Positions 5,943 to 50,470 of a DNA stretch of 64,000 bases are shown here, piece after piece; within the stretch, counting starts at the first letter, position 1; the number at the start of each line of letters is the position of its first letter. The position numbers were made by a program, and so were the translations under genes. Under the pieces are notes generated by a model, which worked only from the letters and a program-made list of their open reading frames with translations, made no database searches and was not told the DNA's origin. The DNA comes from Takakia lepidozioides. Lineage: Eukaryota > Plantae > Bryophyta. Where the stretch lies: NCBI GenBank assembly GCA_030704615.1, contig CM060734.1, forward strand, positions 10,416,001-10,480,000, written 5' to 3'.

Positions 5943-8252
5943 TCACCCCCTCATCTAGCGCCGAGTTCCTCGAGGAGCAGTAAAATCTTGGACTTGCTTA
6001 GAGTCGGAGAAAATCCAAAAATTCGGCGAATGGTACTTGCCAAGTATTCGGCTCTTCGTTCTTGACTCAAATGATTTATAGGTCCCTACAACCATCGATA
6101 GTGTCCAACATTTTGAACTTGGGACCACGCAGTGATTTGAGCATTCTGATTTTCGAAACTGCCTTCAAACATGATTTCGTTGCCCTTAAGGTCCGAAGCC
6201 TCAACCTCCAACAAAATTATCAGACTTCGAGTAGGCTCCACTTGCCGTCGTACGGGGTCTAGACGAGGGAGTACGCGTCGCATTGGTGGCCCATCGTCTC
6301 GAGAGCGTCGGCGTGATGTTGAAGGTCGTGAGAGTCGGAACGGCTGATCTGGTAGTTAGGTAAGCGACAACTCCAATGTATCTGGTTCCTGTGATTCCAT
6401 GTTGCCAATACAAAATGCAAGAGTGTTGGAAGTGTAGCAATATATACTGATGTATGGTGTTCCTCCCTCCTTAGCGTATATCAGGTACATTGAATGTGGA
6501 GTCTTCACCTTGAAGCTAACTTGGCTGACATCATCGTTGTGACGTCTTATTGACGTGTAGCTCGGGACTTAGCTGGATATCGTTGATGAAACTCTTGGAC
6601 TTTGTCAGATGCATTGGCGAGGTTGGATGAAGGTTCACACGTTCATTCGCTGATGTCGTAGCCTTTCCAATGTACGAAATACTCAAAACGTTTATACTTG
6701 ATGCGAGAGTCTAGGACTTCGTCGACTTCATACTCAATTTCTTGATTGACTTCAATTGGTGGAGGTGGTACGGAGACTTTCCCTGGAATATTCGATGGAT
6801 GATACAACTCCAATAATGAAACATGAAAGACTGAATGGATGCGCATACTTCGTGGGAGTTCAAGCCGAAAACTGACCGGATTTATTTGTCGAATAATTTT
6901 GAATGGTCCCAGGCGTTGATAATCCAACTTCCTTGATGGTCGCGAGGTTTGTATGTCCCGTCGAAGAAGCCACACACGATCTCCGACCTTGAACTGGGGT
7001 TGGAGTTGGCGACGTTGATCTGCATACTCATTGTATTGTTTTTGAGCTTCTGCGAGGTGGAATGTAAGCTCCTTGTGAATCGTAGCAAGATGAGTAGCAA
7101 GGTTTTCTACAGCAGGGCTTCTAATAGTCTTCATGAGGAAAGGGTTTGCTCGAGGATAATGACCATAATTGAAGAAAAATGAAGTTTGTTTGGTCGAAGA
7201 ATGTATAGTGTTGTTGTAGGCAAACTCAGCCAATGACAGAAAGTCCGTCCAATTATCTTGGTGATAATTTATCGTACAGCGAAAATACTGCTCCAAAATC
7301 TGGTTTACACGTTCGGTTTGACCATCAGTCTGTGGATGATTAGCTGTAGAGAGGTTGATCTTAGTATCCAATATGTGAAATAATCCCCTCTAAAAATTTG
7401 ATATGAACTGTGGTCCTCGATCAGATATGATATCCTTCGGGAGTCCATGAATGCGGTAGATATTATTGAGGAAGAGTCTTGCAGTTTCCTCGCCGGTAAC
7501 CATCTTATTACATAGAATGAAATGTGTCATCTTCGTAAAACGATCTACAATAACAAGGATTGAATCGGTGGTCTTGGAAATTGAAAGGTCCATAATAAAG
7601 TCCATAGACACGGACGACCATGGACCCTTGGGAATGGGTAATGGTTGAAGAAGGCCGTAAGGTCGATATCGTGGTCCCTTCGCTCTAGCACATGTGTCGT
7701 AAGATTTTATAAATTCTTTCACAAGTTTTCACATCTGCGGCCACCAATAGTCCCTGGATATCAATTCCATTGTTTTGTTGAAGCCGAAATGTCCTGCAGC
7801 CGGAAGATCATGACATGTTTGAAGAATTCGAAGTCCTGTAGGTCCTGGAGGTACATAGAGAAGTCCATTGAAATAAAATAAGTCATCTTTGAATTCGAAG
7901 TCGTTTGTAACCTGTGGGTTGTCTCGAGGTCGATTTAATTGACTTCGTAGTGTCGTAGCAAATTGGTCGATCTTCAGTGCTTCCTGAATTTCCTTTATGA
8001 TCTTTGCATCATCATAGGTAGACATAGATAGTATATTCAATTGGAGATTTGCCGGTTTCAAGATGATGGATTTATGTTGGTTGAAAGCCGTCTCCTTTTT
8101 TTTCGGCGCAAGATACGATCGTCGAAAAAGAGCATTGAAAATGTCCGGGGCGATAGGTAATAACAAATCAAACCTTGCTAGTGACATACCCCATCTGGCT
8201 TGACGTCGATTCAAAACACGAGCACTCATAAAATATTCGAGGTTTTTGTGAT
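5322..8252 (-). mobile_element. 5'-truncated Ty3/Gypsy chromovirus (Tcn1-like): end of RNaseH, integrase, chromodomain, PPT and 3' LTR
   Basis: HKNLEYF..LNRRQARW; CHDLPAAGHFGFNKT; SMDFI / SDRGPQF / HPQTDGQTERVNQ (DDE); GPF motif; chromodomain EYEVDEVLDSR..YFVHWKGY. Several stops and frameshifts. Confidence 0.9.
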
Positions 8253-8323
8253 ATCTGCCATTTTGATTTGCAGCTGTTCCATTGTGCTGATGCACCCTGC
8301 GTTGTGGCAGGTCTCATTGGAGT

Positions 8324-8806: not shown

Positions 8807-9237
8807 AAATTTACTCATGTGGTCTGTGGTGCAGGTCTGTTCATTTTTATATATGATGTGTCTGTCACTTTTGTGGATCATTTCATTAGTCTGCTGTCGT
8901 GGTCTACTGCTAAACATTTCTGGTCGATGTTTTGTATTGAGTAGTGCTCCACGTGGTCTGGCAGTACTCCTGGTCGTGGTCTGCTGCTGAACTGATGTTA
9001 TTGGTCTACTACTTCCACGGAGTTGAGTGTACTGTCTTGGTCTACCCCTGTACTGTATTGGTCTGCTTCATGTGGTCTGTGGTGCATGTCTGTTCATTTT
9101 TATATATGATGTACACTTTTGTGGAACATTTCATTAGTCTGTTATCGTGGTCTACTGCTTAACATTTGTGGTCGATGTTTTGTATTGAGTACTGCTCCAC
9201 GTGGTTTGTTGGTGAACCGATGTTATTGATCTCTCGC

Positions 9238-9324
9238 TGTCGTGCGCATACGTATCGCTACACAACTACATCGTTGTCCAAACCACACCACACATATATG
9301 CACAATAAAGTAGTCTGCCACAAT
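9238..9324 (-). repeat. Terminal repeat segment A, outer copy (87 bp)
   Basis: tgtcgtgcgcatacg...gtctgccacaat, repeated at 9682-9767, 28650-28736 and 29094-29180. Confidence 0.95.
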
Positions 9325-9679
9325 GATAAGAAAGCTAAAAGACACACTGTTCACACAAGAAACAACATGAATCCAACAGCATCACTCTTTAAAATAGAAG
9401 TCGAGCCAGGGGCACCCCAAGCTATGGGGACTCCACCCCACAACAACCTATCCTCCCATCATAAGCACACTCAGCTTCTAAACGCATGAAGGAGCTCGGT
9501 CGCGCAGGCTCAACTCGAGAGAGATGAGCTGCGTGACTGCCGCTCTCGTGAAGATAAGACGGGTCAGGTGTCAAACTAAACTTGACACCTGATTTAACAC
9601 TTGACCTAAATCCAAGTGTTAAATACAAATAACTAGCTTTATTCTAGCTAGTTTCACACTGTGCTTATTTAACTTGACA
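9324..9679 (-). repeat. Terminal repeat segment B, 3' copy (356 bp)
   Basis: Near-identical to 20925-21280; only one substitution was noticed by eye (ESGSHAA vs ESGSRAA in the ORF track). Confidence 0.95.
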
Positions 9680-9681
9680 GT

Positions 9682-9767
9682 TGTCGTGCGCATACGTATC
9701 GCTACACAACTACATCGCTTCCAAACCACACCACACATATATGCACAATAAAGTAGTCTGCCACAAT
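9682..9767 (-). repeat. Terminal repeat segment A, inner copy (86 bp), immediately downstream of the PPT
   Basis: Separated from B by the 2-bp spacer in ttGACA-gt-TGTCgt. Confidence 0.95.
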
Positions 9768-9776
9768 CGCCCCCCT
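9767..9776 (-). promoter_or_regulatory. Polypurine tract (AGGGGGGCGA)
   Basis: Plus-strand tcgcccccct abuts inner segment A; identical in copy 2 (29180-29189). Confidence 0.7.
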
Positions 9777-10025
9777 AGCTGGTGGATAGGTCCCTCTAAC
9801 TCCAGATAGCTACAAGATGTAATAGCCACAGCCGTACTAAGTCCTCTATCACTGTCCCTATCGTGCTCAAACTCTATCAACCAAGAGGCCGGGTACAAGA
9901 GTAGCCCCATCGTTAGTCGCCGTCTTGCAATCTGTGAACTTGAGCCAAGATCTCGTGTGTTCAAGGTCTCATAGTAGCTTGGCCTTGCATTTCTTGTTAG
10001 CCTTCCATGGTTGTATCCACTCCCA

Positions 10026-13000
10026 TTATCCAATGCAATGTGGACATAACCAATCCCCATCCGGAACCATCTCAAGAGGTGGAGTCAAGCATCCCATATG
10101 CCAACCTCTAGAGCATCGATCACACACCAGCATGGTGGCTGCCCCTTTAGCAGACGCACACAACATGCACCTCAAACCTGCAGATACCACTGCCAGGTTT
10201 GGGTCAATCCTGCCATCGACATTCGGAAGGTGACATGGCGCACAATTACGCACATGGTCCTTCCAAGTTATGCCATCCCGACCCTCCAAGATCAAGACGC
10301 CTGAGGGCAATACCTCTCGAACCCTCAAAATAAGCCATCCTGCAGTCACATCCAAGGTCGTAGGAGTAGTTTGTTGCAGATAGACATAGTCACCAGGGTT
10401 CAATCTCCGAACCCCAGGACGATAGCCCCCACCACGTATAGTAGCATACCTCAACGTATCACGATGTTGTGCAATGGCAAGGTTCTCGAAAGCCATGGGC
10501 ATGACTTTCTCGAACAACTCTGCACGTTGATCACATGCACGTGCCCACACGTCCGGATCGTCAAGGTTAAGAACTGTAGTAGTTTCTCTACGAATGGATG
10601 TAGGCAAATCCGACTCTCGGCCAAAGAGAAGAAAGTATGGTGAGAAGGAGGCAAGTGATGCTTGCTTGCTGAACCTGTAGCCCATGGCTAACCAGGGTAA
10701 CTGAAGGTCCCAATCTCCTAGGTGTCCCTTCTGCAAGCCATACTTGCGCAAACCCCTCTTTACTGTCTGAACAACCCTCTCTGCCAAGCCATCGGCCTCA
10801 GGATGATCCCGAGAAGTGGTGCGGTGGTCTACCAAGGCCTTGTCACACAAAGCCTGAAACTCCCCCAAGAACTCTCTCCCTTGGTCCGTGAGTACCTCAG
10901 CTGGAGCACCGAATCGGCTAAGCACACAATCCAAGAATGCATACGCAGCTCCCTCACTAGCCTTATCAGGCAATGGAACCAATTCAATCCACTTGGAGAA
11001 GTGCTCCACCATCACCAACACGTACTTGTTGTGGCGCATGGTCAGTGGCAACGGCCCTGCGAAGTCAAGACTCCACCTGTAGCCCAATCCCATGATCGGA
11101 AGAGGGTGCAATTGTGGAGTAGGGGCGTTGAATGAAGCACGCACCCTGTCACACACCATGCACCTAGCCACAAATTGTTGCACCTCTGTGTGCATACCAC
11201 GCCACCAATACTGCCCCTGCAGTAGACTATGAGTGCGTCGCACCCCAAAATGCCCCAACTCCTCATGGGCATGCCGCACTAACCGTGCCCGCTGTGTTGG
11301 GTGAGGCACAATCCTCACTCGACCATCCTCCCACACTCGGAGCAGGTGTGTCCCCTCCCACTTGAACCTCTTGGCTCGTTGTAGGATCCGATCCCTCTCC
11401 TTGGCAGTCACAATGGCTGTAGTGTCTCCAGTGCGGAGGTAGTCCAACACAACTGAATCCTCATGTATATCTTTGGCGCCACATTGCTCATTGCTGGCCT
11501 CAGGGTCCTCAGACACTTGATCTACAGTCATCCCTGTTGCAGGTCCAACCTGGCCTTCCGCTGCCAAGATACACAGAAATGCAGATGCATGCCATCTGGG
11601 CACCATCTCCTCGTCCGTCTCACCATGCCACCGAGCTCCAGTGTCATCCTGCTGGCTTGTGCATGGATTGCGACTCAACCCATCTGCATTGCGATTGACC
11701 AAACCCGGTCGATGCACCACCTGAAAGTCATACTCTTGAAGGATGAGTGCCCACCGTGCAAGCTTCCCCGTAAGCTTGTCTGACTCCATCAACCACTTGA
11801 GTGGTTGGTGATCCGTGACAAGGGTGAAGAGATTGTCGTATAGATAGCACCTGAAGTGTGCCACGGCCCACACTGCAGCTAAGCATTCTCCCTCATATGA
11901 GCTATACTTAGACTCTGCAACGTTGTTCGAGCGGCTAGCATAAGCCACTACGAACTCTCTTCCCTCATCATCCACCTGTGTGAGCACCGCTCCAAGCCCC
12001 AGCATGCTCCAATCTGTATGCAGCTGAAAAGGACGCCCCCTGATAGGTCGTCTCAAGATGGGCGCCGAGGTCAACCTCGCCTTGAGCTCTTGAAAAGCTT
12101 GTTCTTGCTCATCTTCCCACTGCCACTCCTGGTCCACCTTGGTCAGCTTGGTTAGAGCCTTTGCAATGGCACTAAATCCCTTAACAAACCGTCTGTAATA
12201 GTTTGCTAACCCCATGAAAGCTCGAACTCGGCTCACATCCGTGGGGCGTGGAACCTGTGCAATGGACTCTACCTTAGTCTGTTGTACCCCCAATCCTCCA
12301 GGATATATCATGTGACCCAGATACTCAATCTGGTTGTGGAAAAACTTGCACTTTCCCGGATGTAACTTCAATCCGTGCGCCCTCAAGCGCTCAAATACCC
12401 CCTGAAGGTGTCTCTCATGCTCCTCCACCGTAGCACTAAAGATGATGATGTCATCTATGTAGCACCGAGCAAACTCCACCCCTGCTAGAATCCTGTCCAT
12501 GACTCTTTGAAACTCAGCGGGAGCGTTTTTAAGCCCAAATGGTAAGAACCGCCACTGGTATAGGCAATCCTTCCCGTGCTCATTGATCCCCCAGAATGCC
12601 GTCTTTTGCTTATCCGCCTCTTTGATCGGCAACTGGTGATATCCGGATCGTAAATCCAACGTGCTAAAGACCTTGGAATGCCCAATGGCATCAAAGATCT
12701 CCTCTGGTGTCGGCATGGCATACCTATCGGACTTGGTCTGACGATTTACAGGCCGGTAATCACCGCACATACGTCTCTCCGTCCAATTGCCATAGACATC
12801 CTTCTTGGCTGGCATCACTGTGGCTGAAGCATACTCTCCACCAGAGAGCTCCACCAAACCTGCCTCCCAAAGATCTTGAGTCCTCATCTGAATCAAAGAC
12901 CTCTCCATGTCACTGTATCTATAGGGTCTCCGAAAGATTGGCGTGTCAGTGGCCAACTCAATACGGATCTCTTGACCTTTCAGTGCTCCCAAGTCCTTCA

Positions 13001-13160
13001 AACTGAAGGCAAAGCAATTCCTGTAAGCCCTCAGGAACCGCCGTATACGTCGTCTCTCTCCTCCGGTGACAATGGGTCCAATGTCAGGCTCCCAATTGTC
13101 CTCCGTAACTGCAACCTTAAGTCCAGTGGGCTTAGAGGTAGAGGACGCGTCCCGTGGTTG
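10026..13160 (-). CDS. pol: Gypsy Pol: reverse transcriptase, RNase H, integrase (HHCC + DDE) and C-terminal PHD finger; intact reading frame
   Basis: LDLRSGYHQ, PFGLKNAP, YIDD; TDWS..GLGAVL, TDHQPL; HAHEELGH..CMVC, SLDFAG, TDQGREF, DGLAER; PHD CMLC..CDRC..WHMGC..CPHC. The frame is open from 13160 (991 aa from 13001). Confidence 0.97.
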   Translation of the reverse strand, partial: QPRDASSTSKPTGLKVAVTEDNWEPDIGPIVTGGERRRIRRFLRAYRNCFAFSLKDLGALKGQEIRIELATDTPIFRRPYRYSDMERSLIQMRTQDLWEAGLVELSGGEYASATVMPAKKDVYGNWTERRMCGDYRPVNRQTKSDRYAMPTPEEIFDAIGHSKVFSTLDLRSGYHQLPIKEADKQKTAFWGINEHGKDCLYQWRFLPFGLKNAPAEFQRVMDRILAGVEFARCYIDDIIIFSATVEEHERHLQGVFERLRAHGLKLHPGKCKFFHNQIEYLGHMIYPGGLGVQQTKVESIAQVPRPTDVSRVRAFMGLANYYRRFVKGFSAIAKALTKLTKVDQEWQWEDEQEQAFQELKARLTSAPILRRPIRGRPFQLHTDWSMLGLGAVLTQVDDEGREFVVAYASRSNNVAESKYSSYEGECLAAVWAVAHFRCYLYDNLFTLVTDHQPLKWLMESDKLTGKLARWALILQEYDFQVVHRPGLVNRNADGLSRNPCTSQQDDTGARWHGETDEEMVPRWHASAFLCILAAEGQVGPATGMTVDQVSEDPEASNEQCGAKDIHEDSVVLDYLRTGDTTAIVTAKERDRILQRAKRFKWEGTHLLRVWEDGRVRIVPHPTQRARLVRHAHEELGHFGVRRTHSLLQGQYWWRGMHTEVQQFVARCMVCDRVRASFNAPTPQLHPLPIMGLGYRWSLDFAGPLPLTMRHNKYVLVMVEHFSKWIELVPLPDKASEGAAYAFLDCVLSRFGAPAEVLTDQGREFLGEFQALCDKALVDHRTTSRDHPEADGLAERVVQTVKRGLRKYGLQKGHLGDWDLQLPWLAMGYRFSKQASLASFSPYFLLFGRESDLPTSIRRETTTVLNLDDPDVWARACDQRAELFEKVMPMAFENLAIAQHRDTLRYATIRGGGYRPGVRRLNPGDYVYLQQTTPTTLDVTAGWLILRVREVLPSGVLILEGRDGITWKDHVRNCAPCHLPNVDGRIDPNLAVVSAGLRCMLCASAKGAATMLVCDRCSRGWHMGCLTPPLEMVPDGDWLCPHCIG

Positions 13161-14507
13161 CTATGCTGCAACCTCTTGAGCAGTACTCCCTTCCTGCTCA
13201 GTCAATGACAAGGCCTCATCCTGCCCCATCATCTCATCATTGAGAACCTCCTCATCCCGAGAAGAATCCCCAACCTCATCCATCACAGCCGCCTTGGCTG
13301 CCAACTCCCTCTGAACCTCGAGCACCTCCCACGTGTGCCATGGATGTCTACACCCCGTGGTCCTCACCGGCTCGCCCCCACTCGCTGCCTGTACCGTCTC
13401 GGTAGGCAGAGAGACCGTCAAGGGAAGTGCACTCCGCACTCTACGTTGCTCAGCCATAGCCAAGCTGATAATCCAGGTCAAGCAATTGAGATCCATTGCT
13501 TGCCCCAACACCTGACGACGTGATGCCTCAGAAAGAGAAGGCACCGCCGTGGTCCCAGTGGAAAATCCCATAGCCCGCTCTCGCTCGTCGGCATTAGGCT
13601 CCACTAACTGTTGCAACTGAGCATCCCACAGGAGGCCAGGTCCACCATCCCGAAAAGCATGGGATCCTGGGAAGCTGAGCAGTGTAGGTAATGCTGCTCG
13701 TGGTTGACCCACCCTGTTGACCACTGCCAAAGGCGAACGGTCATCGTGTCTCACACGTTGAGACTGCCTCCCTGTGTCCAAAATGCTGTCCACTATGAGG
13801 TGTGTTGGCCGCTGCACCCCATCAAATGCACGCTTGAGCAGTGCGGGTGGCATCAAGTTAGTCCACCATAGCCGTGGACGATGAGCCCGTGATCCCACTG
13901 CAGCTGCATCCAGCAGCACTGCTGACCCAAGCCACGACCGGACTTGATGCACACTGGCCATCACCCTGGCCCGAGAATCGCCCATCAGTGGCACATTCTC
14001 CAAGATGTATGCTGGCGATACAGCTTGATGAAGCTGCAAGTGGCGCAAAATCCGCCCCATCTCCCAAAACAGACCCGTCCTCGAGTCTCGCAATCCATTG
14101 CCATGCCCGGCTGATGAATGCCCTTGGCAGGGCCAACCTGCCACTACCAGATCAATGGAGCCAACCTGCTCCAAATCCGGCGCCCCCAGCAACGAAATGT
14201 CTGCTGGCAAGGCTTGTTGGTATCCACGAACTGCAGACACTGGCAACAAAGCAGGGTACTGCTGTACCAACTGAGCAACATGGCGCAGTGAGACGCGTCG
14301 TGCAGTCTCATCCCTCTCCACATACAGGTAACGCCTTACCCACACACCTGCCTGTAGCACAGCAGCCAATCCGGTGCTGATCCCGCCAAACAAGTCCAGA
14401 AGGCAAATGCCTTCATCCGGATACTGCCACACAATAGGTGTGGTATGGTGACAACTGAGGTGGTCCTGGTGCAATACCCGCACTCTCCTCCTCTCCTGAC
14501 GGTACAA
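13161..14507 (-). CDS. C5 cytosine DNA methyltransferase domain (DNMT3-like) within the retrotransposon polyprotein
   Basis: Motif I LLDLFGGISTG, II YVERD, IV DLVVAGWPCQG (catalytic PC), VI ILENV, VIII AHRPRLWWTN, IX/X ERERAMGF...RRQVLGQAM. Same frame as RT, separated by one TAG. Confidence 0.93.
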   Translation of the reverse strand: MYRQERRRVRVLHQDHLSCHHTTPIVWQYPDEGICLLDLFGGISTGLAAVLQAGVWVRRYLYVERDETARRVSLRHVAQLVQQYPALLPVSAVRGYQQALPADISLLGAPDLEQVGSIDLVVAGWPCQGHSSAGHGNGLRDSRTGLFWEMGRILRHLQLHQAVSPAYILENVPLMGDSRARVMASVHQVRSWLGSAVLLDAAAVGSRAHRPRLWWTNLMPPALLKRAFDGVQRPTHLIVDSILDTGRQSQRVRHDDRSPLAVVNRVGQPRAALPTLLSFPGSHAFRDGGPGLLWDAQLQQLVEPNADERERAMGFSTGTTAVPSLSEASRRQVLGQAMDLNCLTWIISLAMAEQRRVRSALPLTVSLPTETVQAASGGEPVRTTGCRHPWHTWEVLEVQRELAAKAAVMDEVGDSSRDEEVLNDEMMGQDEALSLTEQEGSTAQEVAA

Positions 14508-14858
14508 AAGCCTCTACCCAGGCTTGTTGCACCCGTCGATCAGCAACCTGCTGCAAATCCTTGCTCGTACCCCACAATGGAGTGTGAGCAACCATGGCAG
14601 GCAACTCCGCCATACCATGCATGTCATCCTGCTCTGCTGGAGGTGGCACATCCTCTGCATGGGCATTGCCTTCCAGCAACTCTCCAGGCCAACTAACTGC
14701 AGCTGTAAAGGCGGCTAGTGTTGGCATCTTGCCCCGTTGGGCAGCCGCAATACCCCAATGAATGTCACAGGGAGCTGTGCACGACGACCATCCCCTGACT
14801 GCCATCCGGCCTGTAGAATGCTGACTCCTCCCAAAAGTCCAGGGTGAAGCCCATGGGG

Positions 14859-15797
14859 TTATAACACTGCCCCACCAACGAGGACATCGTAAGAGACCGC
14901 GTCTGTCACAATGGCCTTGGCTCGCATCACTGAGCCATCTGTAGGATGATCCGGCTGCAGTCTAATGGCCAACTGATGCCGTGTCATGCCCCGAGCCTGC
15001 TCTGATCCTCCCAGAGATGTCTGTATCTGGAAAGGACAAGGCTCCATATCCGCCTCCATGAGGCCCAAACCTGCAATAGCAGCTCTGCCCAACATCAGTG
15101 GCTGAGCTCCCGAGTCCAACAAGACCCGCAGTGGCCGGTACTTCTTGCCTGCCGGTCCACTCAAAGAGAAAATGTCATCCTGGTTGTCTAACAAGACAAC
15201 TCCAGGTGTCACCATGGCGCGCTCAAAGGCTGGCCTAGCTGGCAGCTCCGTCAACCTGGCAGCTGCAGCTTGCCATGGCGCAGCCGTGGCAGTCTTGACC
15301 CTCAAATCCGAGGATCCCTCTGCCACTACACCTTCCACTAACTCCGCAGAAGATGAAGTGACCTCCCCACTCTCACAGAGTGTTGCTGCTAGTCTGAACA
15401 CTGCAGCTGGTCTTACCCCCGGCGTCGCAATCATGGTTGCCGAGAACAGTGGGGCTTGACACACAGAGGTGGCTGCCCCCAACAACACACCGGCTGCACT
15501 AGCCTTGGCAGCAGGTGTCAGTGCTGCACGTGTAGCTCTCCCCAATGGCATAGAAACCTCCGCCTCGGTAACAGTCGGGCGAGAACTAGGTGCCATGGAT
15601 GGCGTTGACACTGTCTCCGCCAAGGTGAATGACTGAGGCAGCCTCGCCTGACGGCTTGCCTCCCCACGTTGTGGATCCAACTCCACCTCTGCACCTCGTG
15701 GCTCAGGAACTCGTGCTGCTCCTCGAGTCACGGCTGCAGCAGACTCCACCTGCTCTAGTGGTAGTGCTGCTCCGCACATGAATCCCATGCCTCCCAT
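14859..15797 (-). CDS. Retropepsin aspartic protease region of the polyprotein
   Basis: VLLDSGAQ and YDVLVGG motifs. Translation past the TAA continues as PMGFTLDFWEE, indicating a mutated continuous ORF. Confidence 0.85.
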   Translation of the reverse strand: MGGMGFMCGAALPLEQVESAAAVTRGAARVPEPRGAEVELDPQRGEASRQARLPQSFTLAETVSTPSMAPSSRPTVTEAEVSMPLGRATRAALTPAAKASAAGVLLGAATSVCQAPLFSATMIATPGVRPAAVFRLAATLCESGEVTSSSAELVEGVVAEGSSDLRVKTATAAPWQAAAARLTELPARPAFERAMVTPGVVLLDNQDDIFSLSGPAGKKYRPLRVLLDSGAQPLMLGRAAIAGLGLMEADMEPCPFQIQTSLGGSEQARGMTRHQLAIRLQPDHPTDGSVMRAKAIVTDAVSYDVLVGGAVL

Positions 15798-15914
15798 ATC
15801 TCCTCCCTCAGGACAGGAGGTGGACCATCCCGCCTGGGAGCCGGTACCGCCTGAGCTGTAGCCATGGCAGCGAGCCTCTGCTCTAGCTGCTGAAGCCGGT
15901 TGGCCATGCCTTGG

Positions 15915-17335
15915 TCAACACCCTGACCTCCGCGTCCTTGGCCATGTTAAGCTTGCCCGACCACCTCGTCCTCTCTGGGCTGGTCCACCTCGCCCCCGGC
16001 CACCATTGTTCCCTTGGAACTGGCCTGGGCGCAACTCAGGATGCAAGTCATAACACTGGGCATCTCCATGCCCATACTTGCCACAATGCCCACACTGCAA
16101 CTGTGCAGGCTGTGCTTGTGCCGGCCTTCTGCCACTCTCTGGGCAATCTCTCTTGACATGGGGTCCTCCACATGTCCAACATATCACCCCTGGTTGTTGT
16201 TGGCCTGCAAAAGATGCCACGGGCCTCTGCACCTGAGGTCCCCTGTAAGCTCCATGGAACTTGGGTTGGGAAACCTTGCCCCCCTGACCACGCTGTTGGG
16301 CAGTCCCTTGTGCCTGTGGGCTGGCAGCTGCGCCTCGTGCAGGCATGTCCTTGCCAAATCCAATGGTAACAACTCGCTCCTCCACCATGTTGAGCTCAAT
16401 CCGCTCAGCCAGCAGAAACACATCTGCTAATGTGGGTTGGGCTGCTTGTAACAGGGTTGCATCCCGCACCCTTCTCCTGAGCTCCTTGTCCAAAATTCCA
16501 TACCAGAACTGGATTGCCTGAGCTTCAGTAACCCCTTGGGTCACACTTATCAAGCGCCTCATACGAGTGTACGCCTCTCGCAGGCTCTCACTGGGTTTGC
16601 GCTGGAAGTCTTGCAAACTTCGCAGCTTCTCTGTCCGTACACCTTGGTAGTTCCTCCGCAACTCCTGGAAGAACTCCACCACCGGGTTGAATCTAGGCAC
16701 ATGTGTTGTAGTCGTGGCAGGAGGAGTAGTAGCACCTTTTGAACTGGTACCACCTACAGAAGTACCGGCACTACTTGTTCCACTACTAGTGCTGGCAGTG
16801 GGAGATATTGGTACTGATGCAGCTACTGGTCGCGTGTGCCTCGAGTAATGGAGACGTAGTCAGGTGACCAATACATCCTCCACTCCTCAATCTCTGCTTC
16901 ATGTCCTCGCCTGAACTCGTGGTAATCGTCCATAGGCGGGCCTTCCAAATGCTGGAACAGTCCCTTCCACGCCATGAATGGGGTGAATAGCTGTGGATTG
17001 CGCATCTGCTGCAAATCACACCAGCTGTCGAACTCCTGGATAAAGTCATCCAACTCGATTGTGCCCACAGCTCCAGAGTACCTACGAGGCCCCTTGGTAG
17101 CTCCATACATCTCCTCCATGTCGTCCCACAACAATGGCGAATGAAACTGCACACCTGTTGATGAAGCCTCCGAGTCTGTGTCTGACTCTACAGTAGTTGA
17201 GGGTGGCGGTGAAGGTGGTCTGAACCGAATACCTCGTCTTGTGAACCCACTCTCACTGTTACTGCCTGTAGCCGTACTCCCCTCAAAACCCTTGGGTAAC
17301 TCCGTAATGACACTCACAATGTGCACCTCCTCCAC
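15915..17335 (-). CDS. gag: Gag (frameshifted near 16830) with two CCHC zinc knuckles
   Basis: YSG..IELDDFIQEFD and QKPSESLREAYTRM capsid-like motifs; CWTCGGPHVKRDC and CGHCGKYGHGDAQC; split over ORFs 16823-17335 and 15915-16700. Confidence 0.88.
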
Positions 17336-17839
17336 GTGACACTATAAGGCTCTAGTACTTCTAATAGTGACACGGGTAGGCACCTGTTGCAGTTTAAGGG
17401 TCATATCCCAATGGCTCAGGGCACCTGCACCTGCATCCACCGCAAGAACTCCTATGGTTGGCTGGTCATCAACCCAGCCTCACCATAGAAGAAACACTGG
17501 TGGTCTTGCTGGTCATCACTCCAGCCTCACCACCGACAGCATACTCTAGGATTGACCGGTGATCAAATCCGGCCTAATCCCTATGAAAGCAAGCGCCCAC
17601 ACAAAACCAACATGGCGCACAGTCAAGCATGCAGGTGTTGGGGGGGATCCAAACACAAGAAATCAAAACATCAACACCCCCACACCAAAATCCAGCTGCA
17701 ATGCTGATCCTGCAGAATAGCCCAGCCCAAAACCCGGACTGACTGGCCTCCACCAAGAGAGGCTTTGGCAACTACAAGTACAAGGTAATGAAAATAGTAC
17801 AGAGATGGAGGGAAGAATAGAAGCCCGACCAAGCAAGAT

Positions 17840-18589
17840 CTAATCCTGATCTATGCTATCAACTGCCAGACTTCTCTCAAAGTGCCTCGCTCTGCATGAT
17901 GGTAAGGTGTAGGAGGTATATCTATGTCCAGAAACCTTGTCCCAAGCTACAGTAGCTCGCTCTAACCAACCCTCCTCCTCTTTCTGCCAGGTAGAGACAA
18001 AGCAATACTCCCCTATCTCCCGCTCACTGAACACTAAAGAAAACAAAGGTAGGGTCTGATAGTCTCTCAACTCGAAAGCTTTGAGACGGTTGCGGGTGTC
18101 CTCATTGCGAATGACTGCATCTCCTTCACGCACAACAAACATGTCATTGCTAATGAACCCCCGCTCGTGGTTGCCCTGTGCAGAGCGTATCCGGCTGCAA
18201 CCATGTCTGATTGCACAAACTTGTGTAGCTCCTGCTCCTCTGCTCCAGTACACCACGGCCTTGTGGCTGAACACCTTGGTCCCCGGGGCTGTCTTTGGCT
18301 GTGTTCCAAGCCTAGCTTTCACCCACTTTGGTATTTCACCTACAGCTGCAGAACTGCTGGCTCCAACAGAGTTCTGACTGTCCAAGGCGATATTGAGGCC
18401 CTCAATGCCAACTACAGCAGTCTGTTGTCTACTGCTAATGCCTGACTCCCAGTATGCAATCAACTCGTCTAACTGTTCTCCACTCAAATCAGTCTGAGTT
18501 CCTTGGGAAACATAAATCTTGTCCCCTTGTGTGCACAGGCTAAGAGATGAGACCTGCCCTTCAATTACGTCCTCATTTCCCCCAGCCAT
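17840..18589 (-). CDS. Extra 249-aa ORF upstream of gag, unknown function
   Basis: ATG-initiated open frame, co-oriented with gag, globular-looking C-terminal half; no family recognised. Confidence 0.45.
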   Translation of the reverse strand: MAGGNEDVIEGQVSSLSLCTQGDKIYVSQGTQTDLSGEQLDELIAYWESGISSRQQTAVVGIEGLNIALDSQNSVGASSSAAVGEIPKWVKARLGTQPKTAPGTKVFSHKAVVYWSRGAGATQVCAIRHGCSRIRSAQGNHERGFISNDMFVVREGDAVIRNEDTRNRLKAFELRDYQTLPLFSLVFSEREIGEYCFVSTWQKEEEGWLERATVAWDKVSGHRYTSYTLPSCRARHFERSLAVDSIDQD

Positions 18590-19930
18590 ACAAGGAGTAC
18601 ATCCCCAGATTTATCTCTCATGTAGACCAAAACAGGTTCTAGAAACAGGATTGTGGGTCTTTCATGGCACACTCACACTCTAAAAATTCCATAGATTTCT
18701 AGCAGAGTCCCAAAAACAAAAACCAGGTCTAGATAGGTAGATATCCCCTTTCTGCAGCTATCCCCTCAAAAATTGAGTCAAACGGAGCTCATTTGACAAA
18801 GATATGACCAACCAGGCTCTTTAAACATAACACCAAAACTCTTTTTTTTTTCTTTTTTTTTTCTTTTTTTTTTAACACCAAAACGTTCTCGCCATTACAA
18901 CCTGTTCCCAGGTTATCTACGGGTTCCCGAGGCCGTTCCCCCCGACAGGACTTCGCCAGTGAGATTCATAGTCCCTTGGGAGGCATTGAACAGTCTTTAA
19001 CCAGTTAAGGGATAGATCTGGCACGGACTGTCAACTCAGCCTCTTCAGTGCAGGTGATTAGAGGATCTGTTGTTGCTGTCATGGAGGTGACAGAGGAGAC
19101 TCAAGGAGCAGATGGAGTAAATGGAAACACTGCCAAAATACTGGCTGCTGTAGTGACTTCCAATAGGCGACCAGCTGTGTCAGACTCCGAAGATGATGAT
19201 TCAATCTCATGGTCAAGTTCAGGCAGCGAGGAGCATAACCGGAAAGAAAGAGGAAGTATCACAGATGAAGGAAAAGAACAGGTGAGTGTATCACGAGCAT
19301 CTGCAGATGGCGTGGTTATGGACTCTCACCATCAGTTTGACCATTCTGGAAGTTCTGGGAGTTCTCTAAGGGATGCAGAGCTCCACTCTCAAGTGCCTGT
19401 GGCAGACACTGTATCAGAGGTGTATTCGCCTCCCAGCATAAACACACAGGGCTTTCTTGCTGGCGACACAAGGACAAGCACGGCACCCACAACATCCGCA
19501 AGGCTTGATCTTATAGCTCGTGTTCCTCTACTCATAACTGAGACTGTCCGTTTTTCAAGTGTTGATAGTGGTCGTAGGGGGCGATTGGCAGGGGCTGCCG
19601 AACTGGGCATTAAGGAACTCTTCACATACTGTACAGATTGCGAAATGGTGTCGGGCACTTTGTTCAGAACGCCTTCCCCTTGCTGAGGCCTTGAAGTAGA
19701 AGTTGAATCAGTTGGGCTGCCTGTCAATTGACCCACCTGCTCCTTGAAGGCGTCCTTGGCCAACACTGCAGACTGCGTAAGGCTATCGCCTCGTTTCCCT
19801 TCGCTGATCAACCGTCTCTCGCACTCATCTTCGCCAATTCTGTTGTACAAATTTGTGGTACACCACACGGCCTTCTTTGCGCACAAGCTTGCCGTTGTTG
19901 GGATTTTAAGAGCAACCCACCTCGCACAAA

Positions 19931-20761
<831 letters not shown>

Positions 20762-20910
20762 TCAAACTCACGCGCAGAGACGACAACTAAATCTGCGCGC
20801 ACAGCCCATGGCAACAGCAGGGCCAGATGGACTCCTGCCCCAAAATATATATTATAATAGTGCTAAAACAAACATTGTATCTAGCTTAGCACCAGCACAC
20901 TAGATAACGG

Positions 20911-20925
20911 TCATCTCTCTCGAGT
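20911..20925 (-). promoter_or_regulatory. Putative self-priming primer-binding site
   Basis: tcatctctctcgagt (20911-20925) is the exact reverse complement of actcgagagagatga (21114-21128) inside the 5' repeat. No tRNA-type TGG PBS is present. Confidence 0.75.
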
Positions 20926-21280
20926 GATAAGAAAGCTAAAAGACACACTGTTCACACAAGAAACAACATGAATCCAACAGCATCACTCTTTAAAATAGAA
21001 GTCGAGCCAGGGGCACCCCAAGCTATGGGGACTCCACCCCACAACAACCTATCCTCCCATCATAAGCACACTCAGCTTCTAAACGCATGAAGGAGCTCGG
21101 TCGCGCAGGCTCAACTCGAGAGAGATGAGCTGCGCGACTGCCGCTCTCGTGAAGATAAGACGGGTCAGGTGTCAAACTAAACTTGACACCTGATTTAACA
21201 CTTGACCTAAATCCAAGTGTTAAATACAAATAACTAGCTTTATTCTAGCTAGTTTCACACTGTGCTTATTTAACTTGACA
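20925..21280 (-). repeat. 5' terminal repeat (segment B only, 356 bp)
   Basis: Element-strand TGTCAAG...TTATCA; matches 9324-9679. Confidence 0.95.
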
Positions 21281-23251
21281 CGATGTATGCAGTACTCCTC
21301 GCCGAGGTCTGCTGCTGAATTGATGTTATTGGTCTGCTACCTCCACGAGGTGGACTTAGTTTGGACCACGGTTGTTGGTCTGCTCCATGAGATAGTGGTA
21401 TACTAAATTCGGTGGTCGCCTGAATGTGGGGCACAAGTCAGACCCATCGTTAGTCGAGTATACTGTCTTTGTGTACCCCTGTACTGTATTGGTCTGCTTC
21501 ATTGAGCTATGTTTGCTTTATTACTCTACTACATTTGTTTACTGGTTCACTTTGGCTCATTTATTGACTTCATTGGTCTCCTTCATGAAACCTTTAAAAA
21601 GCACATTAAGGGTGTCGCAGATGCTCTACCGCATTGGTCTACTACAAGTCAGTGCTGGTCTACTGTAGGTGGTCTGCGATCATGGTCTGCTGCATTGGAC
21701 AACTGCAGGTGACAATTGGTCTACCGCATTGGACAACTGCATGTCATTTCCTTAGTTAGATTGATCCTTCTTTCTTAGTTCTAGACGATGAGACACCCGC
21801 CTCAGAGCCGAGTAAATATGGCTAACAGGGGGAAGGGCAGACACACGTTTCCCCCCATTTAGTTTCATTTTCCGCCGAGCTTGAAAATATTCCACAAAAT
21901 CATTTTTCCTCTTCAATGACATGTTGTTGTTGTCTTTTACACGATTGAACGTTCATCTGCAGCTGGGTGTAACATGCCGGAAGCTTTTTTGACGAGGATG
22001 TCTTGCATCTGCCCTCGGCAAACACGCACCGCAGATAAGCAATGGTGTATAAGGTATGCGTCGTTGTGTACAAGGTCAAGCAGGTCGGTTATCTCTCGTT
22101 TCAAAATAGCTTCCAACAGGTCTGGCGTGAGCAACGACTCTGCCGTGTTCGGGGTTGCGCTTGCACGCACATTGTCGTTACCGCTTTCGAGGTCGCATGC
22201 TGCCATGTCTTCGTGTTCATCCAAATTCTCCAGCCCACCGTGAACAGTACCGAGATGGGAACCATATGTCCGGATAATGAGACAGTCTTGTAGGTCTGGT
22301 TTTACCAACTTTATGACCCGAACCTGGTGTTTGCACAGATTGCCTTTTAGCGCCCACGGGCAGGTGCAGCAGGCCCACTGTGACTCTAGATTGAACATGG
22401 TGTACGTTGTATTCGGATCGGAGGAGCTGATCACATAAGCAGGCTGCCCAAGCGCTGCAGGCAAAGTCACACGTGAAAGAGGTATGTCACGGGCTGCACA
22501 TATTGCACTGGAAATGTGCTTTTCCAGTTTATCGCTGCGAATAAACCCATGCATCTTCAGATGAATGTCGTACCAGTAGTGGACCAGTACACGCCCAGTC
22601 AACTCCCATATGAGCCAATCGGCTCTTCGACCGGTCATTTTGCCTTTGCCCATATTAAGTCTTGCCTTTAAGTTTTCGTGGTATGCCTCGATGCTTGCAT
22701 TAGTATCTTGGCTTGCATGTGGAATGTTGCGGGCAGCCGTACACCACATAGCAATTTTGGGAACCCAGTACACATGAATGTAGTGGAGGAACAACTGACC
22801 AGCAAGATATTTCTTTTTCATTGCCTTCAATTTTTTCTTAACCCATTTCACAGCTTCGTCTTCTTTCTGCGGTCCACCTTTGCAGTACATAAGGTCGCCC
22901 ATATCTGCCAACAGTTTCGAGGATGTTCCCGGATCACTGATTTTCTGGCATGATTGCTTGACCTAGGCCTTCCGTACATGCCAAAGGCAAAGGAAAATGC
23001 ATACTCCTGTGAAAACAAACCTGCATGCGGCCACAAAGTCAGAAGTGCCTGAACCGGGCATTCGTATTCAGCACTGCCACAAGCGTGAGACCAAACAGGG
23101 CAGACCAAATAGGGCAGACCATATAGCAAACCCCTAAAGCGGACCATAAGGCAGACCATAGGGCAGACCATAGGGCATATCAAGCTCCCAGGGCACCTCA
23201 CCCTTGTGCACCAAACTCCCTGGGAACCCTCGGCAGACGCTCAATGCTGCA

Positions 23252-28649: not shown

Positions 28650-31600
28650 TGTTGTGCGCATACGTATCGCTACACAACTACATCGTTGTCCAAACTACAC
28701 CACACATATATGGACAATAAATTAGTTTGCCACAATAGATTGTAAGAACTAAACTCACATGTCTGATAACAAAGAAACACAAAACACAACACAATCACTC
28801 GTTAAACTAAGAGTCGAGCCAGGGGCATCCCAAGCTATGGGGACTCCACCCCACAACATCTTATGCTCCCTTCATAAGCACACTCAGATTCTCAGCAGCA
28901 AAGGAGCTCGGTCGTGCAGACTTAACTCGAGAGAGATGAGCCGCACGACTGACGCTCTCGTGAAGATAAGATGGTTTAGGTGTCAAGCTAAACTTGACAC
29001 CTGACTTAACACTTGAACTAAATCCAAGTGTAAAATACAAATAACTAGATTTATTCTAGTTAGTTTCACACTGTGTTTATTTAACTTGATAGCTGTCGTG
29101 CGCATACGTATCGCTACACAACTACATCACTGTCCAAACTACACCACACATATGTGGACAATAAAGTAGTCTGCCACAATCGCCCCCCTAGCTGGTGGAT
29201 AGGTCCCTCTAACTCCAGATAGCTACAAGATGTAATAGCCACAGCCGTACTAGGTCCTCTATCACTGTCCCTATTGTACTCAAACTCTATAGACCAAGAG
29301 ACCGGGTACAAGAGTAGCCCCATCGTTAGTCGCCGTCTTGCAATCTGTGAACTTGAGCCAGGATCTCGTGTGTTCAAGGTCTCATAGTAGCTTGGCCTTG
29401 CATTTCTTGTTAGCCTTCCATGGTTGTATCCACTCCCACTATCCAATGCAATGCGGACATAACCAATCCCCATCAGGAACCATCTCAAGAGGTGGAGTCA
29501 AGCATCCCATATGCCAACCTCTAGAGCATCGATCACACACTAGCATGGTGGCTGCCCCTCTAACAGACCCACACAACATGCACCTCAAACTTGCAGGTAC
29601 CACTGCCAGGTTTGGGTCAATCCTGCCATCGACATTCGGAAGGTGACATGGCGCACAATTACGCACATGGTCCTTCCAAGTTATGCCATCCCGACCCTCC
29701 AAGATCAAGACGCCTGAGGGCAATACCTCTCGAACCCTCAAAATAAGCCATCCTGCAGTCACATCCAAGGTCGTAGGAGTAGTTTGTTGCAGATAGACAT
29801 AGTCACCAGGGTTCAATCTCCGAACCCCAGGACGATAGCCCCCACCACGTATAGTAGCATACCTCAACGTATCACGATGTTGTGCAATGGCAAGGTTCTC
29901 GAAAGCCATGGGCATGACTTTCTCGAACAACTCTGCACGTTGATCACATGCACGTGCCCACACGTCCGGATCGTCAAGGTTAAGAACTGTAGTAGTTTCT
30001 CTACGAATGGATGTAGGCAAATCCGACTCTCGGCCAAAGAGAAGAAAATATGGTGAGAATGAGGCAAGTGATGCTTGCTTGCTGAACCTGTAGCCCATGG
30101 CTAACCAGGGTAACTGAAGGTCCCAATCTCCTAGGTGTCCCTTCTGCAAGTCATACTTGCGCAAACCCCTCTTTACTGTCTGAACAACCCTCTCTGCCAA
30201 GCCATCGGCCTCAGGATGATCCCGAGAAGTGGTGCGGTGGTCTACCAAGGCCTTGTCACACAAAGCCTGAAACTCCCCCAAGAACTCTCTCCCTTGGTCC
30301 GTGAGTACCTCAGCTGGAGCACCGAATCGGCTAAGCACACAATCCAAGAATGCATACGCAGCTCCCTCACTAGCCTTATCAGGCAATGGAACCAATTCAA
30401 TCCACTTGGAGAAGTGCTCCACCATCACCAACACGTACTTGTTGTGGCGCATGGTCAGTGGCAACGGCCCTGCGAAGTCAAGACTCCACCTGTAGCCCAA
30501 TCCCATGATCGGAAGAGGGTGCAATTGTGGAGTAGGGGCGTTGAATGAAGCATGTACCCTGTCACACACCATGCACCTAGCCACAAATTGTTGCACCTCT
30601 GTGTGCATACCACGCCACCAATACTGCCCCTGCAGTAGACTATGAGTGCGTCGCACCCCAAAATGCCCCAACTCCTCATGGGCATGCCGCACTAACCGTG
30701 CCCGCTGTGTTGGGTGAGGCACAATCCTCACTCGACCATCCTCCCACACTCGGAGCAGGTGTGTCTCCTCCCACTTGAACCTCTTGGCTCGTTGTAGGAT
30801 CCGATCCCTCTCCTTGGCAGTCACAGTGGCTGCCGTGTCTCCAGTGCGGAGATAGTCCAACACAGCTGAATCCTCATGTATATCTTTGGCGCCACCTTGC
30901 TCATTGCTGGCCTCAGGGTCCTCAGACACTTGATCTACAGTCATCCCTGTTGCAGGTCCAACCTAGCCTTCCGCTGCCAAGATACACAGAAATGCAGATG
31001 CATGCCATCCGGGCACCATCTCCTCGTCCGTCTCACCATGCCACCGAGCTCCAGTGTCATCTTGCAAGCTCGTGCATGGATTGCGACTCAACCCATCTGC
31101 ATCCCGATTGACCAAACCCGGTCGATGCACAACCTGAAAGTCATACTCTTGAAGAATGAGTGCCCACTGTGCAAGCTTCCCCGTAAGCTTGTCTGACTCC
31201 ATCACCACTTGAGTGGTTGGTGATCCGTGACAAGGATGAAGAGATTGCCGTATAGATAGCACCTGAAGTGTGCCACGGCCCACACTGCAGCTAAGCATTC
31301 TCCCTCATATGAGCTATACTTAGACTCTGTAACGTTGTTCGAGCGGCTAGCATAAGCCACTACGAACTCTCTTCCCTCATCATCCACCTGTGTGAGCACC
31401 GCTCCAAGCCCCAACATGCTCCAATCTGTATGCAGCTGAAACGGACGCCCCCTGATAGGTCGTCTCAAGATGGCGCCGAGGTCAACCTCGCCTTGAGCTC
31501 TTGAAAAGCTTGTTCTTGCTCATCTTCCCACTGCCACTCCTGGTCCACCTTGGTCAGTTTGGTTAGAGCCTTTGCAATGGCACTAAATCCCTTAACAAAC

Positions 31601-32548
31601 CGTCTATAATAGTTTGCTAATCCCATGAAAGCTCGAACTCAGCTCACATCCGTGGGGCGTGGAATCTGTGCAATGGACTCTACCTTAGTCTGCTGTACCC
31701 CCAATCCTCCAGGATATATCATGTGAACCAGATACTCAATTTGGTTGTGGAAAAACTTGCACTTCCCTGGATGTAACTTCAATCCGTGCGCCCTCAAGCG
31801 CTCAAATACCACCTGAAGGTGTCTCTCATGCTCCTCCACCGTAGCACTAAAGATGATGATGTCATCTATGTAGCACCGAGCAAACTCCACCCCTGCTAGA
31901 ATTCTGTCCATGACTCTTTGAAACTCTGCCGGAGCGTTCTTAAGCCCAAATGGTAAGAACCGCCACTGGTATAGGCAATCCTTCCCGTGCTCATTGATCC
32001 CCCAGAATGTCGTCTTCTGCTTATCCGCCTCCTTGATCGGCAACTGGTGATATCCGGATCGTAAATCCAAAGTGCTAAAGATTTTGGCATGCCCAATGGC
32101 ATCAAAGATCTCCTCTAGTGTCGGCATGGCATACCTATCGGACTTGGTATGACGATTTACAGGCCGGTAATCACCGCACAAACGTCTCTCCGTCCAATTG
32201 CCATAGACATCCTTCTCGGCTGGCATCACTGTGGCTGAAGCATACTCTCCCCCAGATAGCTCGACCAAACCAGCCTCCCAAAGGACCTGAGTTCTCATCT
32301 GAATCAAGGACCTCTCCATGTCACTGTATCTATAGGGTCTCCGAAAGATTGGCATGTCAGTAGCCAATTCAATGCGAATCTCTTGACCCTTCAGTGCTCC
32401 TAAGTTCTTCAAACTGAAGGCAAAGCAGTTCCTGTAAGCCCTCAAGAACCGCCGTATACGTCGTCTTTCTCCTCCGGTGACTATAGGTCCAACATCAGGC
32501 TCCCAGTTGTCCTTCGTGACTGCAACCTTGAGTCCAGCAGGCTTAGAA
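28650..32548 (-). mobile_element. Second, 5'-truncated copy of the PHD-Gypsy family (RT-RH-INT-PHD plus A-B-A terminus)
   Basis: Near-identical Pol peptides (ORFs 29439-30944, 30963-31468, 31639-32556) with frameshifts/stops; A 28650-28736, B-variant 28737-29091, gc spacer, A 29094-29180. Broken off just before the DNMT region. Confidence 0.93.
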
Positions 32549-43919: not shown

Positions 43920-44419
43920 NNNNNNNNNNNNNNNNNNNNNNNNNNNNNNNNNNNNNNNNNNNNNNNNNNNNNNNNNNNNNNNNNNNNNNNNNNNNNNNNN
44001 NNNNNNNNNNNNNNNNNNNNNNNNNNNNNNNNNNNNNNNNNNNNNNNNNNNNNNNNNNNNNNNNNNNNNNNNNNNNNNNNNNNNNNNNNNNNNNNNNNNN
44101 NNNNNNNNNNNNNNNNNNNNNNNNNNNNNNNNNNNNNNNNNNNNNNNNNNNNNNNNNNNNNNNNNNNNNNNNNNNNNNNNNNNNNNNNNNNNNNNNNNNN
44201 NNNNNNNNNNNNNNNNNNNNNNNNNNNNNNNNNNNNNNNNNNNNNNNNNNNNNNNNNNNNNNNNNNNNNNNNNNNNNNNNNNNNNNNNNNNNNNNNNNNN
44301 NNNNNNNNNNNNNNNNNNNNNNNNNNNNNNNNNNNNNNNNNNNNNNNNNNNNNNNNNNNNNNNNNNNNNNNNNNNNNNNNNNNNNNNNNNNNNNNNNNNN
44401 NNNNNNNNNNNNNNNNNNN
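43920..44419. other. Assembly gap (500 N)
   Basis: Run of n. Confidence 1.
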
Positions 44420-50400: not shown

Positions 50401-50470
50401 ATATAAGATTCTTTCCTGATTGTTACTTTATGACCTTGGGAATTGAGGGTTCTTTCACTGGCCTCTTCTT
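44420..50470 (-). repeat. ~2.3 inverted, indel-rich copies of the 2,640-bp unit
   Basis: Reverse complement of the plus array; many 1-bp indels. Confidence 0.9.

Follow-up and report, generated by a model that had tools for sequence, protein, structure and literature searches.

An internal palindromic site whose halves form the inserted ends of a permuted Ty3/Gypsy element from Takakia lepidozioides

The Takakia element, its genes and its relatives

The stretch of Takakia lepidozioides DNA analysed here (contig CM060734.1 of assembly GCA_030704615.1, 64,000 nucleotides in full, called the window below) carries a 12-kb Ty3/Gypsy element, copy 1, that encodes a Dnmt3-like methylase, a reverse transcriptase (RT), RNase H, an intact DDE integrase and a PHD finger, together with the 3' part of a second copy, copy 2 (Table 1). 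The pol domains are arranged in the order PR-RT-RH-IN with an RT of the Ty3 type (best solved match, Ty3-G Gag-Pol), the D, D and E of the integrase align with the catalytic residues of foamy-virus integrase, and the combination of a DDE integrase with an H2C2 zinc finger is that of the Ty3/Gypsy group. No chromodomain was matched in pol by Pfam, the PHD finger being present there instead. No Pfam match to a tyrosine recombinase was detected in the ORFs scanned, i.e., 11 of the 19 element ORFs of at least 120 aa in the window and 55 of the 134 ORFs of at least 110 aa in nine related loci. In the sense direction the window element has the layout X - PBS - genes - PPT - Y - AC - X - Y, in which X and Y are repeats, PBS is the primer-binding site and PPT the polypurine tract.

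Table 1. Features of copies 1 and 2 (positions within the window)
Feature	Position	Strand
Whole element, copy 1: sense X - internal - Y - AC - X - Y; ends TGTC...GACA; without target duplication	9238..21280	-
5' repeat X, 356 bp; begins TGTC, ends TCA before PBS	20925..21280	-
14-mer in X complementary to PBS; predicted self-primer / transcript 5' end; second copy at 9514-9527	21115..21128	-
Primer-binding site, not tRNA-like, abuts X	20911..20924	-
gag (weak Retrotrans_gag match, CCHC motifs) and protease (DSG motif); interrupted in this copy by stops and frame changes	14859..17341	-
C5 cytosine methyltransferase (PF00145); best solved matches DNMT3A	13164..14513	-
In-frame TAG followed by CAACCA, between ORF1 and pol; predicted read-through stop, common to relatives	13155..13163	-
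Open pol frame, 1044 aa: RT, RNase H, H2C2 zinc finger, DDE integrase, PHD finger	10026..13160	-
Polypurine tract AGGGGGG, directly before Y	9770..9776	-
Internal repeat Y1, start of the true LTR (U3 side); sense end GACA	9682..9769	-
Palindromic internal attachment site GACA-GT-TGTC at the Y/X (A/B) boundary; likely ancestral form GACAGCTGTC	9676..9685	
3' repeat X	9324..9679	-
X/Y joint, presumed join of the true cDNA ends; first Y bases after PPT missing here	9316..9332	
Terminal repeat Y2; sense end GACA is the element boundary	9238..9324	-
Copy 2, 3' part only: Y-X-Y and pol; same terminal base as copy 1	28650..32547	-
Copy 2 internal site GATA-GC-TGTC	29088..29097	

Relatives were collected with an integrase alignment as query, which gave 80 metagenome loci and 8 genome-bin loci (L numbers below). 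The integrases of the metagenomic relatives are 44-78% identical to that of the window, and most copies in the survey are old and deaminated and lie on metagenomic contigs that can be chimeric. Contigs L081-L087 are filed in prokaryote genome bins, probably as eukaryotic contamination; the circular contigs L081 and L050 were considered as real circles and rejected as assembly loops. Named protein relatives among the matches listed come from green algae and charophytes (Coleochaete, Closterium, Volvox, Pleodorina, Tetrabaena and Haematococcus), the nearest of those listed being Coleochaete scutata (73% over the integrase-PHD region). No Klebsormidium-named protein was among the matches listed, and the polyprotein search with the RT region was dominated by unrelated Gypsy proteins. 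In IMG/VR the single protein found no match and the alignment found three weak ones.

A single in-frame TAG parts the gag-protease-methylase frame from pol in the window element and in L001 and L081, where it is followed by CAACCA, CAGTTA or CAATCA; a further family has TAG CAACCC. The contexts of these three elements fit the CARYYA read-through signal, and judged from the sequence, pol is likely made through stop read-through. The position of the methylase varies among relatives: it lies before RT in the window, L001 and L081, and between RNase H and integrase in L027 and L084, and the palindrome described below is present with either position. The 5' internal region (19009-20761) contains several ORFs without an assigned family and a fragment weakly matching pyridine-nucleotide oxidoreductases, presumably a captured monodehydroascorbate reductase.

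Copy 1 is surrounded by a degenerate repeat of roughly 60-bp units (8900-9237 and 21281-21700). Copy 2 is broken off at 32547 by another repeat, a partial copy (32548-34424) of a 2640-bp unit beginning exactly at the break point; this unit forms a head-to-tail array (44427-64000) with copies up to 100% identical, and inverted copies at about 44.4-50.5 kb adjoin a 500-N gap (43920-44419). A remnant of an ordinary chromovirus integrase (H2C2, Tf2-type SH3 and chromodomain) lies at 6643-8313 on the minus strand. A search of sequencing runs listed 16 with a match, none of them RNA, a result that says nothing on expression; contigs from four runs over 9100-10400 had a summed depth far higher on the element than on its flank and were too fragmented for forms or spacers to be counted in them.

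Repeats, internal site and target duplications

The internal junction of the repeats in copy 1 reads ttGACA-gt-TGTCgt (9674-9687, core GACAGTTGTC at 9676-9685), and that of copy 2 reads ttGATA-gc-TGTCgt (core at 29088-29097), both as given in the preliminary description of this DNA. In a self-BLAST of the window the Y repeats (9238-9324 and 9682-9767) are 97.7% identical and the X repeats (9324-9679 and 20925-21280) 99.7% identical. Because of these repeat limits, the outer ends of copy 1 (TGTCGT at 9238, its start, and TTGACA at 21280, its end) are exactly the two palindrome halves minus the 2-bp spacer, as had been claimed before. Copy 2 starts at the base equivalent to the start of copy 1 (28650, TGTTGT), in a flank unrelated to that of copy 1.

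The PPT stands directly before Y1 in four families. Since the PPT abuts Y and the PBS abuts X, the LTR of ordinary reverse transcription would, by the established scheme of LTR replication, be Y-NN-X, and the palindrome is therefore internal to the LTR; an attachment site carried inside the LTR had been proposed earlier, and the positions of PPT and PBS place it there. The complement of the PBS is found at position 153-183 of X in four families with differing sequences (best matches, 13-17 nt), the match being shorter in older copies and none being found in 3 of 14 loci. Pairing between the PBS and the self-primer occurs in the predicted fold (z -3.3), and together with the conserved position of the complement it leads us to predict a self-priming PBS. 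No tRNA gene was found in the 64-kb window. The first 155 nt of X (21126-21280, minus strand) contain several hairpins, three of them long-stemmed and one with AATAAA in its loop.

Thirty-two junction rows were aligned, 22 placed via repeat homology and 10 via the motif, so that spacer length is tested by the former group alone; one insertion is represented by two rows, and the spacer of L018 was counted as AC. The spacer is 2 bp in all 32 rows (GC in 16, AC in 7, GT in 6, AT in 2 and TC in 1), and 31 of the 32 are GC or its deamination products. Since C-to-T changes on one strand or the other turn GC into AC, GT or AT, GACAGCTGTC is likely the working site; this perfect palindrome, previously guessed to be the consensus, is indeed the commonest class. 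The junction consensus across copies thus has a constant spacer length, and the ends are the two halves of the site in the families whose repeats could be checked. Of 67 related loci, 11 have exact GACAGCTGTC within 4 kb downstream of the integrase, where mononucleotide shuffles predict 0.155, and 18 have GACA(GC/GT/AC/AT)TGTC, for which such shuffles predict 0.61; the 67 include a few insertions counted twice. Six of the loci with exact GACAGCTGTC are distant (44-53% integrase identity), and the site, recognised in them solely by motif and position, lies 59-246 nt after a G-rich run; in about half of the distant loci no palindrome was found within the contig. GACA-NN-TGTC is a real, conserved and probably functional site. 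The palindrome arms are 6-8 bp per side in the distant loci L023, L083, L084 and L052, with 16-bp perfect palindromes in L023 and L083.

Terminal Y ends were read in 42 rows from 37 distinct insertions, and all end in -ACA (GACA in 33, AACA in 8 and TACA in 1). Intact 5' ends, counted without L011 and L012, in which the start of X is missing, read flank followed by TGTC with no Y upstream in 13 of 13 distinct cases. The layout X-int-Y-X-Y occurs in five repeat families, between which X and Y hardly align. By tally, the Y-X-Y kind accounts for 21 distinct 3' ends (three of them irregular: L029 ends inside Y2, L034 is degenerate and L049 is without Y1) and 18 end after a single Y. The X-int-Y form is represented by five complete copies, three with exact duplications, and its ends are the same as those of X-int-Y-X-Y. 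The canonical order Y-X-int-Y-X was not found among the 39 distinct 3' ends reaching the terminal Y or the 13 5' ends, and none of the 13 distinct intact 5' ends shows the mirror product X-Y-X-int-Y; the protein-anchored search is blind to solo X-Y. All copies with ends are thus X-int-Y-X-Y or X-int-Y and none has the two complete collinear LTRs at its ends that are usual in Ty3/Gypsy elements.

Ten complete copies were compared for target duplications. A 4-bp duplication is exact in five and present within one mismatch in eight, while mismatched flank pairs as a control gave 1/90 exact and 6/90 within one mismatch. The duplicated 4-mers vary from copy to copy, and lengths of 2, 3, 5, 6 and 7 bp, tried likewise, were rejected with zero exact matches. 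Duplications of 4-6 bp are those of Ty3/Gypsy elements, and a 4-bp duplication is the mark of a DDE integrase. No duplication was found at copy 1 in the window or at L066; in copy 1, recombination between insertions in the tract of ~60-bp units may be the cause.

A candidate integration route and its alternatives

Ordinary LTR retrotransposons and retroviruses integrate via their DNA ends. The layout, the fixed site, the ends, the duplications, the variable X/Y joint and the intact integrase are directly observed in the elements studied here. On this sequence evidence we consider it likely that the element's own DDE integrase cuts the palindrome, which lies inside the LTR and supplies the inserted ends with its halves, and that it does so after CA on both strands, a geometry that by analogy would fit the foamy-virus/HIV-1 type. 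Cleavage after each CA had been suggested in the preliminary description; the 4-bp duplications, the intact D-D-E triad and the failure to find a tyrosine recombinase in the scanned ORFs all favour it, and from these we infer the cut itself. The palindrome is not itself a circle junction, being a templated, inherited site internal to the LTR; the true cDNA ends are presumably joined elsewhere, at the imprecise boundary at 9324.

The proposed route would begin with a self-primed transcript from X and ordinary reverse transcription into a linear cDNA with two Y-NN-X LTRs. The integrase would pass over the true cDNA ends (on the PPT side, the end lacks a TG in any fixed place) and would cut GACA^NN-TGTC on both strands to give two CA-3'OH ends with 2-nt 5' overhangs, i.e., the geometry of processed retroviral ends. 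Insertion then yields the 4-bp target duplication with loss of the spacer, as the flanks show, and the true cDNA ends would be joined imprecisely, either beforehand in a 2-LTR circle or afterwards by host repair; the sequences are compatible with both. Opening at the 5'-LTR site would produce X-int-Y-NN-X-Y, with an intact site and both R copies and thus able to replicate again, and the use of one half from each LTR (or of a 1-LTR circle) would produce a dead-end X-int-Y. Only X-int-Y-X-Y combines an intact site with a copy of R at each of its ends, and therefore only that form would replicate. The X-int-Y form could alternatively originate from Y-Y recombination and not from the integrase.

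Some points stand against this route. A symmetric circle should also open at its other site and give X-Y-X-int-Y, the form that is absent from the 5' ends; because of this absence, a bias for the 5'-LTR site must be assumed. A candidate reason for such a bias is that the 5' LTR would be double-stranded right after the second strand transfer, and the 3' LTR only at the end of plus-strand synthesis. The window copy, moreover, is young, judged from its X repeats, and is without a target duplication, and the same lack of a duplication is seen in L066.

A DIRS/PAT-like intermediate, in which the transcript runs through the terminal Y, the Y/X boundary templates a circle and the integrase cuts the rebuilt junction, would require no extra rule for the missing X-Y-X-int-Y, and the repeat order is the A1-B1-A2-B2 of PAT and Ngaro as given in the available parts of PMC4157794 and PMC5890265. 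We nevertheless regard it as improbable, for the PBS and PPT are in their ordinary positions and the X/Y joint, which would be inherited if templated by a transcript, varies between close copies. In one family, with the end of X at the joint read off the self-primer match, 13 distinct insertions have eight forms of the joint: exact in four, two extra PBS bases in three, and three extra, one base short, one extra base and loss on both sides in one each, the remaining two being large deletions. From 0 to 3 PBS bases are thus retained; L031, L044 and L074 have an identical X/PBS end and three different joints, and the joint of L009 has an insertion partly copied from nearby X. The Y copies also speak against a DIRS/PAT-like intermediate: Y1 and Y2 of one element have private variants in common, and they are closer to each other than Ys of different elements (transversion distance 0.009 within an element vs 0.020-0.023 between elements; all changes, 0.08 vs 0.11-0.13), while no site separating Y1s from Y2s was found in 12 loci, two of which are the same insertion. 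Private variants and closeness argue for a single template of both Ys in each cycle, which is what LTR duplication would lead one to expect. One site shared by the two window copies had suggested that the terminal Y is inherited position-specifically, a reading rejected after it was not borne out by the 12 loci.

It is very improbable that the palindrome is the recombination core of a tyrosine recombinase, encoded elsewhere in the element or acting in trans, as in elements of DIRS order. The split-direct-repeat layout, the inverted 4-7-bp arms around a spacer and the 2 of 10 complete copies without duplication, the window copy included, would suit such an enzyme; 4-bp duplications of unrelated sequences in the other eight, a spacer that is lost and not matched to the target, the intact integrase triad and the lack of a recombinase match in the scanned ORFs would not. 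Equally improbable, and already largely refuted, is a secondary origin of the layout, in which ordinary LTR elements were rearranged after insertion (by autointegration, tandem or nested insertion, or recombination) or mis-assembled and the palindrome is merely adjacent TG...CA ends. Such an origin would suit the collapse to which repeat contigs are prone (L081 and L050 form circular paths, and the loop is read in L001 as well) and the missing duplication of the window copy. Against it, the identical, base-precise ends recur across independent assemblies in 37 distinct insertions, the permuted form is itself flanked by target duplications, the 39 3' and 13 5' ends include no canonical copy, and the same layout has been published for Klebsormidium.

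Returning to cleavage of the LTR-internal palindrome by the element's integrase, we are inclined to extend it, with less assurance than the cut, to a green-lineage clade of Ty3/Gypsy elements in which the cDNA ends would have been abandoned, integration would proceed only via the palindrome and end-joining of the true ends would be obligatory in every productive cycle. If true, integration of this kind would stand as a third route, next to linear DDE integration and the circles of tyrosine recombinases.

Comparison with known systems

The papers compared here are cited from excerpts. The closest described element is KnitGypsy-Dnmt3 of Klebsormidium nitens (de Mendoza et al. 2018, PMC5890265), for which the legend of Fig. 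4c gives DIRS-like repeats in the order A-coding-B-A-B. Both elements have Gypsy domains and a Dnmt3-like methylase in the polyprotein (PMC5890265), and the DIRS-like A-coding-B-A-B order recurs in the window element and its relatives; compared by description and not by sequence, the window element probably belongs to the KnitGypsy-Dnmt3 group. The layout, having been published for KnitGypsy-Dnmt3, is therefore not new. Nothing is said in the available parts of that account (PMC5890265) of how the element is primed or integrates, or of a palindromic junction, a target duplication or an X-int-Y form. The proposed route would account for this unexplained layout without a recombinase. Surveys that require paired LTRs, e.g., REXdb, would miss such elements, and a widespread family may be under-annotated for that reason.

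PAT, Ngaro, TOC and VIPER have the order A1-ORFs-B1-A2-B2 (PMC4157794), and the split direct repeats that mark PAT and Ngaro are found in the window element as well; those elements, as described there, use a tyrosine recombinase, whereas the present ones have a Ty3-type RT, a DDE integrase, PBS, PPT and 4-bp duplications. The self-priming Ty3/Gypsy elements Tf1/Sushi and Tcn1 have a PBS complementary to their own LTR and not to a tRNA, a mode of priming that the one predicted for the window element resembles, but they are chromoviruses with ordinary paired LTRs (PMC6317226), whereas the window integrase ends in a PHD finger. In the Ginger1/2 DNA transposons a Gypsy-like DDE enzyme acts on embedded ends with TGT termini and a 4-bp duplication, and one Ginger1 family also has a PHD finger; Ginger elements, however, are not reverse-transcribed and have inverted repeats of 40-270 bp (PMC2836005), compared with only 4-7 bp here. 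The active Gypsy-7a_cRei of Chlamydomonas has a PHD finger and LTRs with described subparts; compared by description only, its left and right LTRs are both reported, the left without its last 8 bp (PMC9940879). The available parts of PMC8226300, PMC9977147 and 10.64898/2026.05.21.726589 hold nothing on the X-int-Y-X-Y layout, and the literature covered was not found to describe the internal palindrome or the duplications, nor the X-int-Y form or the mechanism; outside its scope lay theses, Repbase, the Chlamydomonas repeat library and the REM1 paper, which may affect how new these features are.

In the circle junctions of IS3- and IS30-family elements, too, the ends are abutted, with 2-3 bp between them. 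An integrase able to open a defined 10-bp site within closed DNA and to insert the product may be of use as a tool. Whether LTR circles or junction palindromes serve as integration precursors is an old question of retrovirology, for which the evidence so far points to a side route (PMC1180852, PMC4372172, in the parts cited). Foamy-virus integrase cuts the palindromic LTR-LTR junction after CA on both strands and leaves 5'-AT (PMC1180852), the same 2-nt 5' overhang as proposed here, and a cut after CA on both strands of a palindrome is likewise described for HIV-1 (PMC4372172; also PMC1905944). In these viruses the palindrome arises from ligated true ends and cleavage restores a collinear provirus as a side route (PMC1180852, PMC4372172), whereas in the window element the palindrome is templated in the LTR, the product is permuted and the route is apparently the only one. 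The elements would be a natural system with internal cleavage as the rule, and a single intact integrase together with a short oligonucleotide would suffice for a test.
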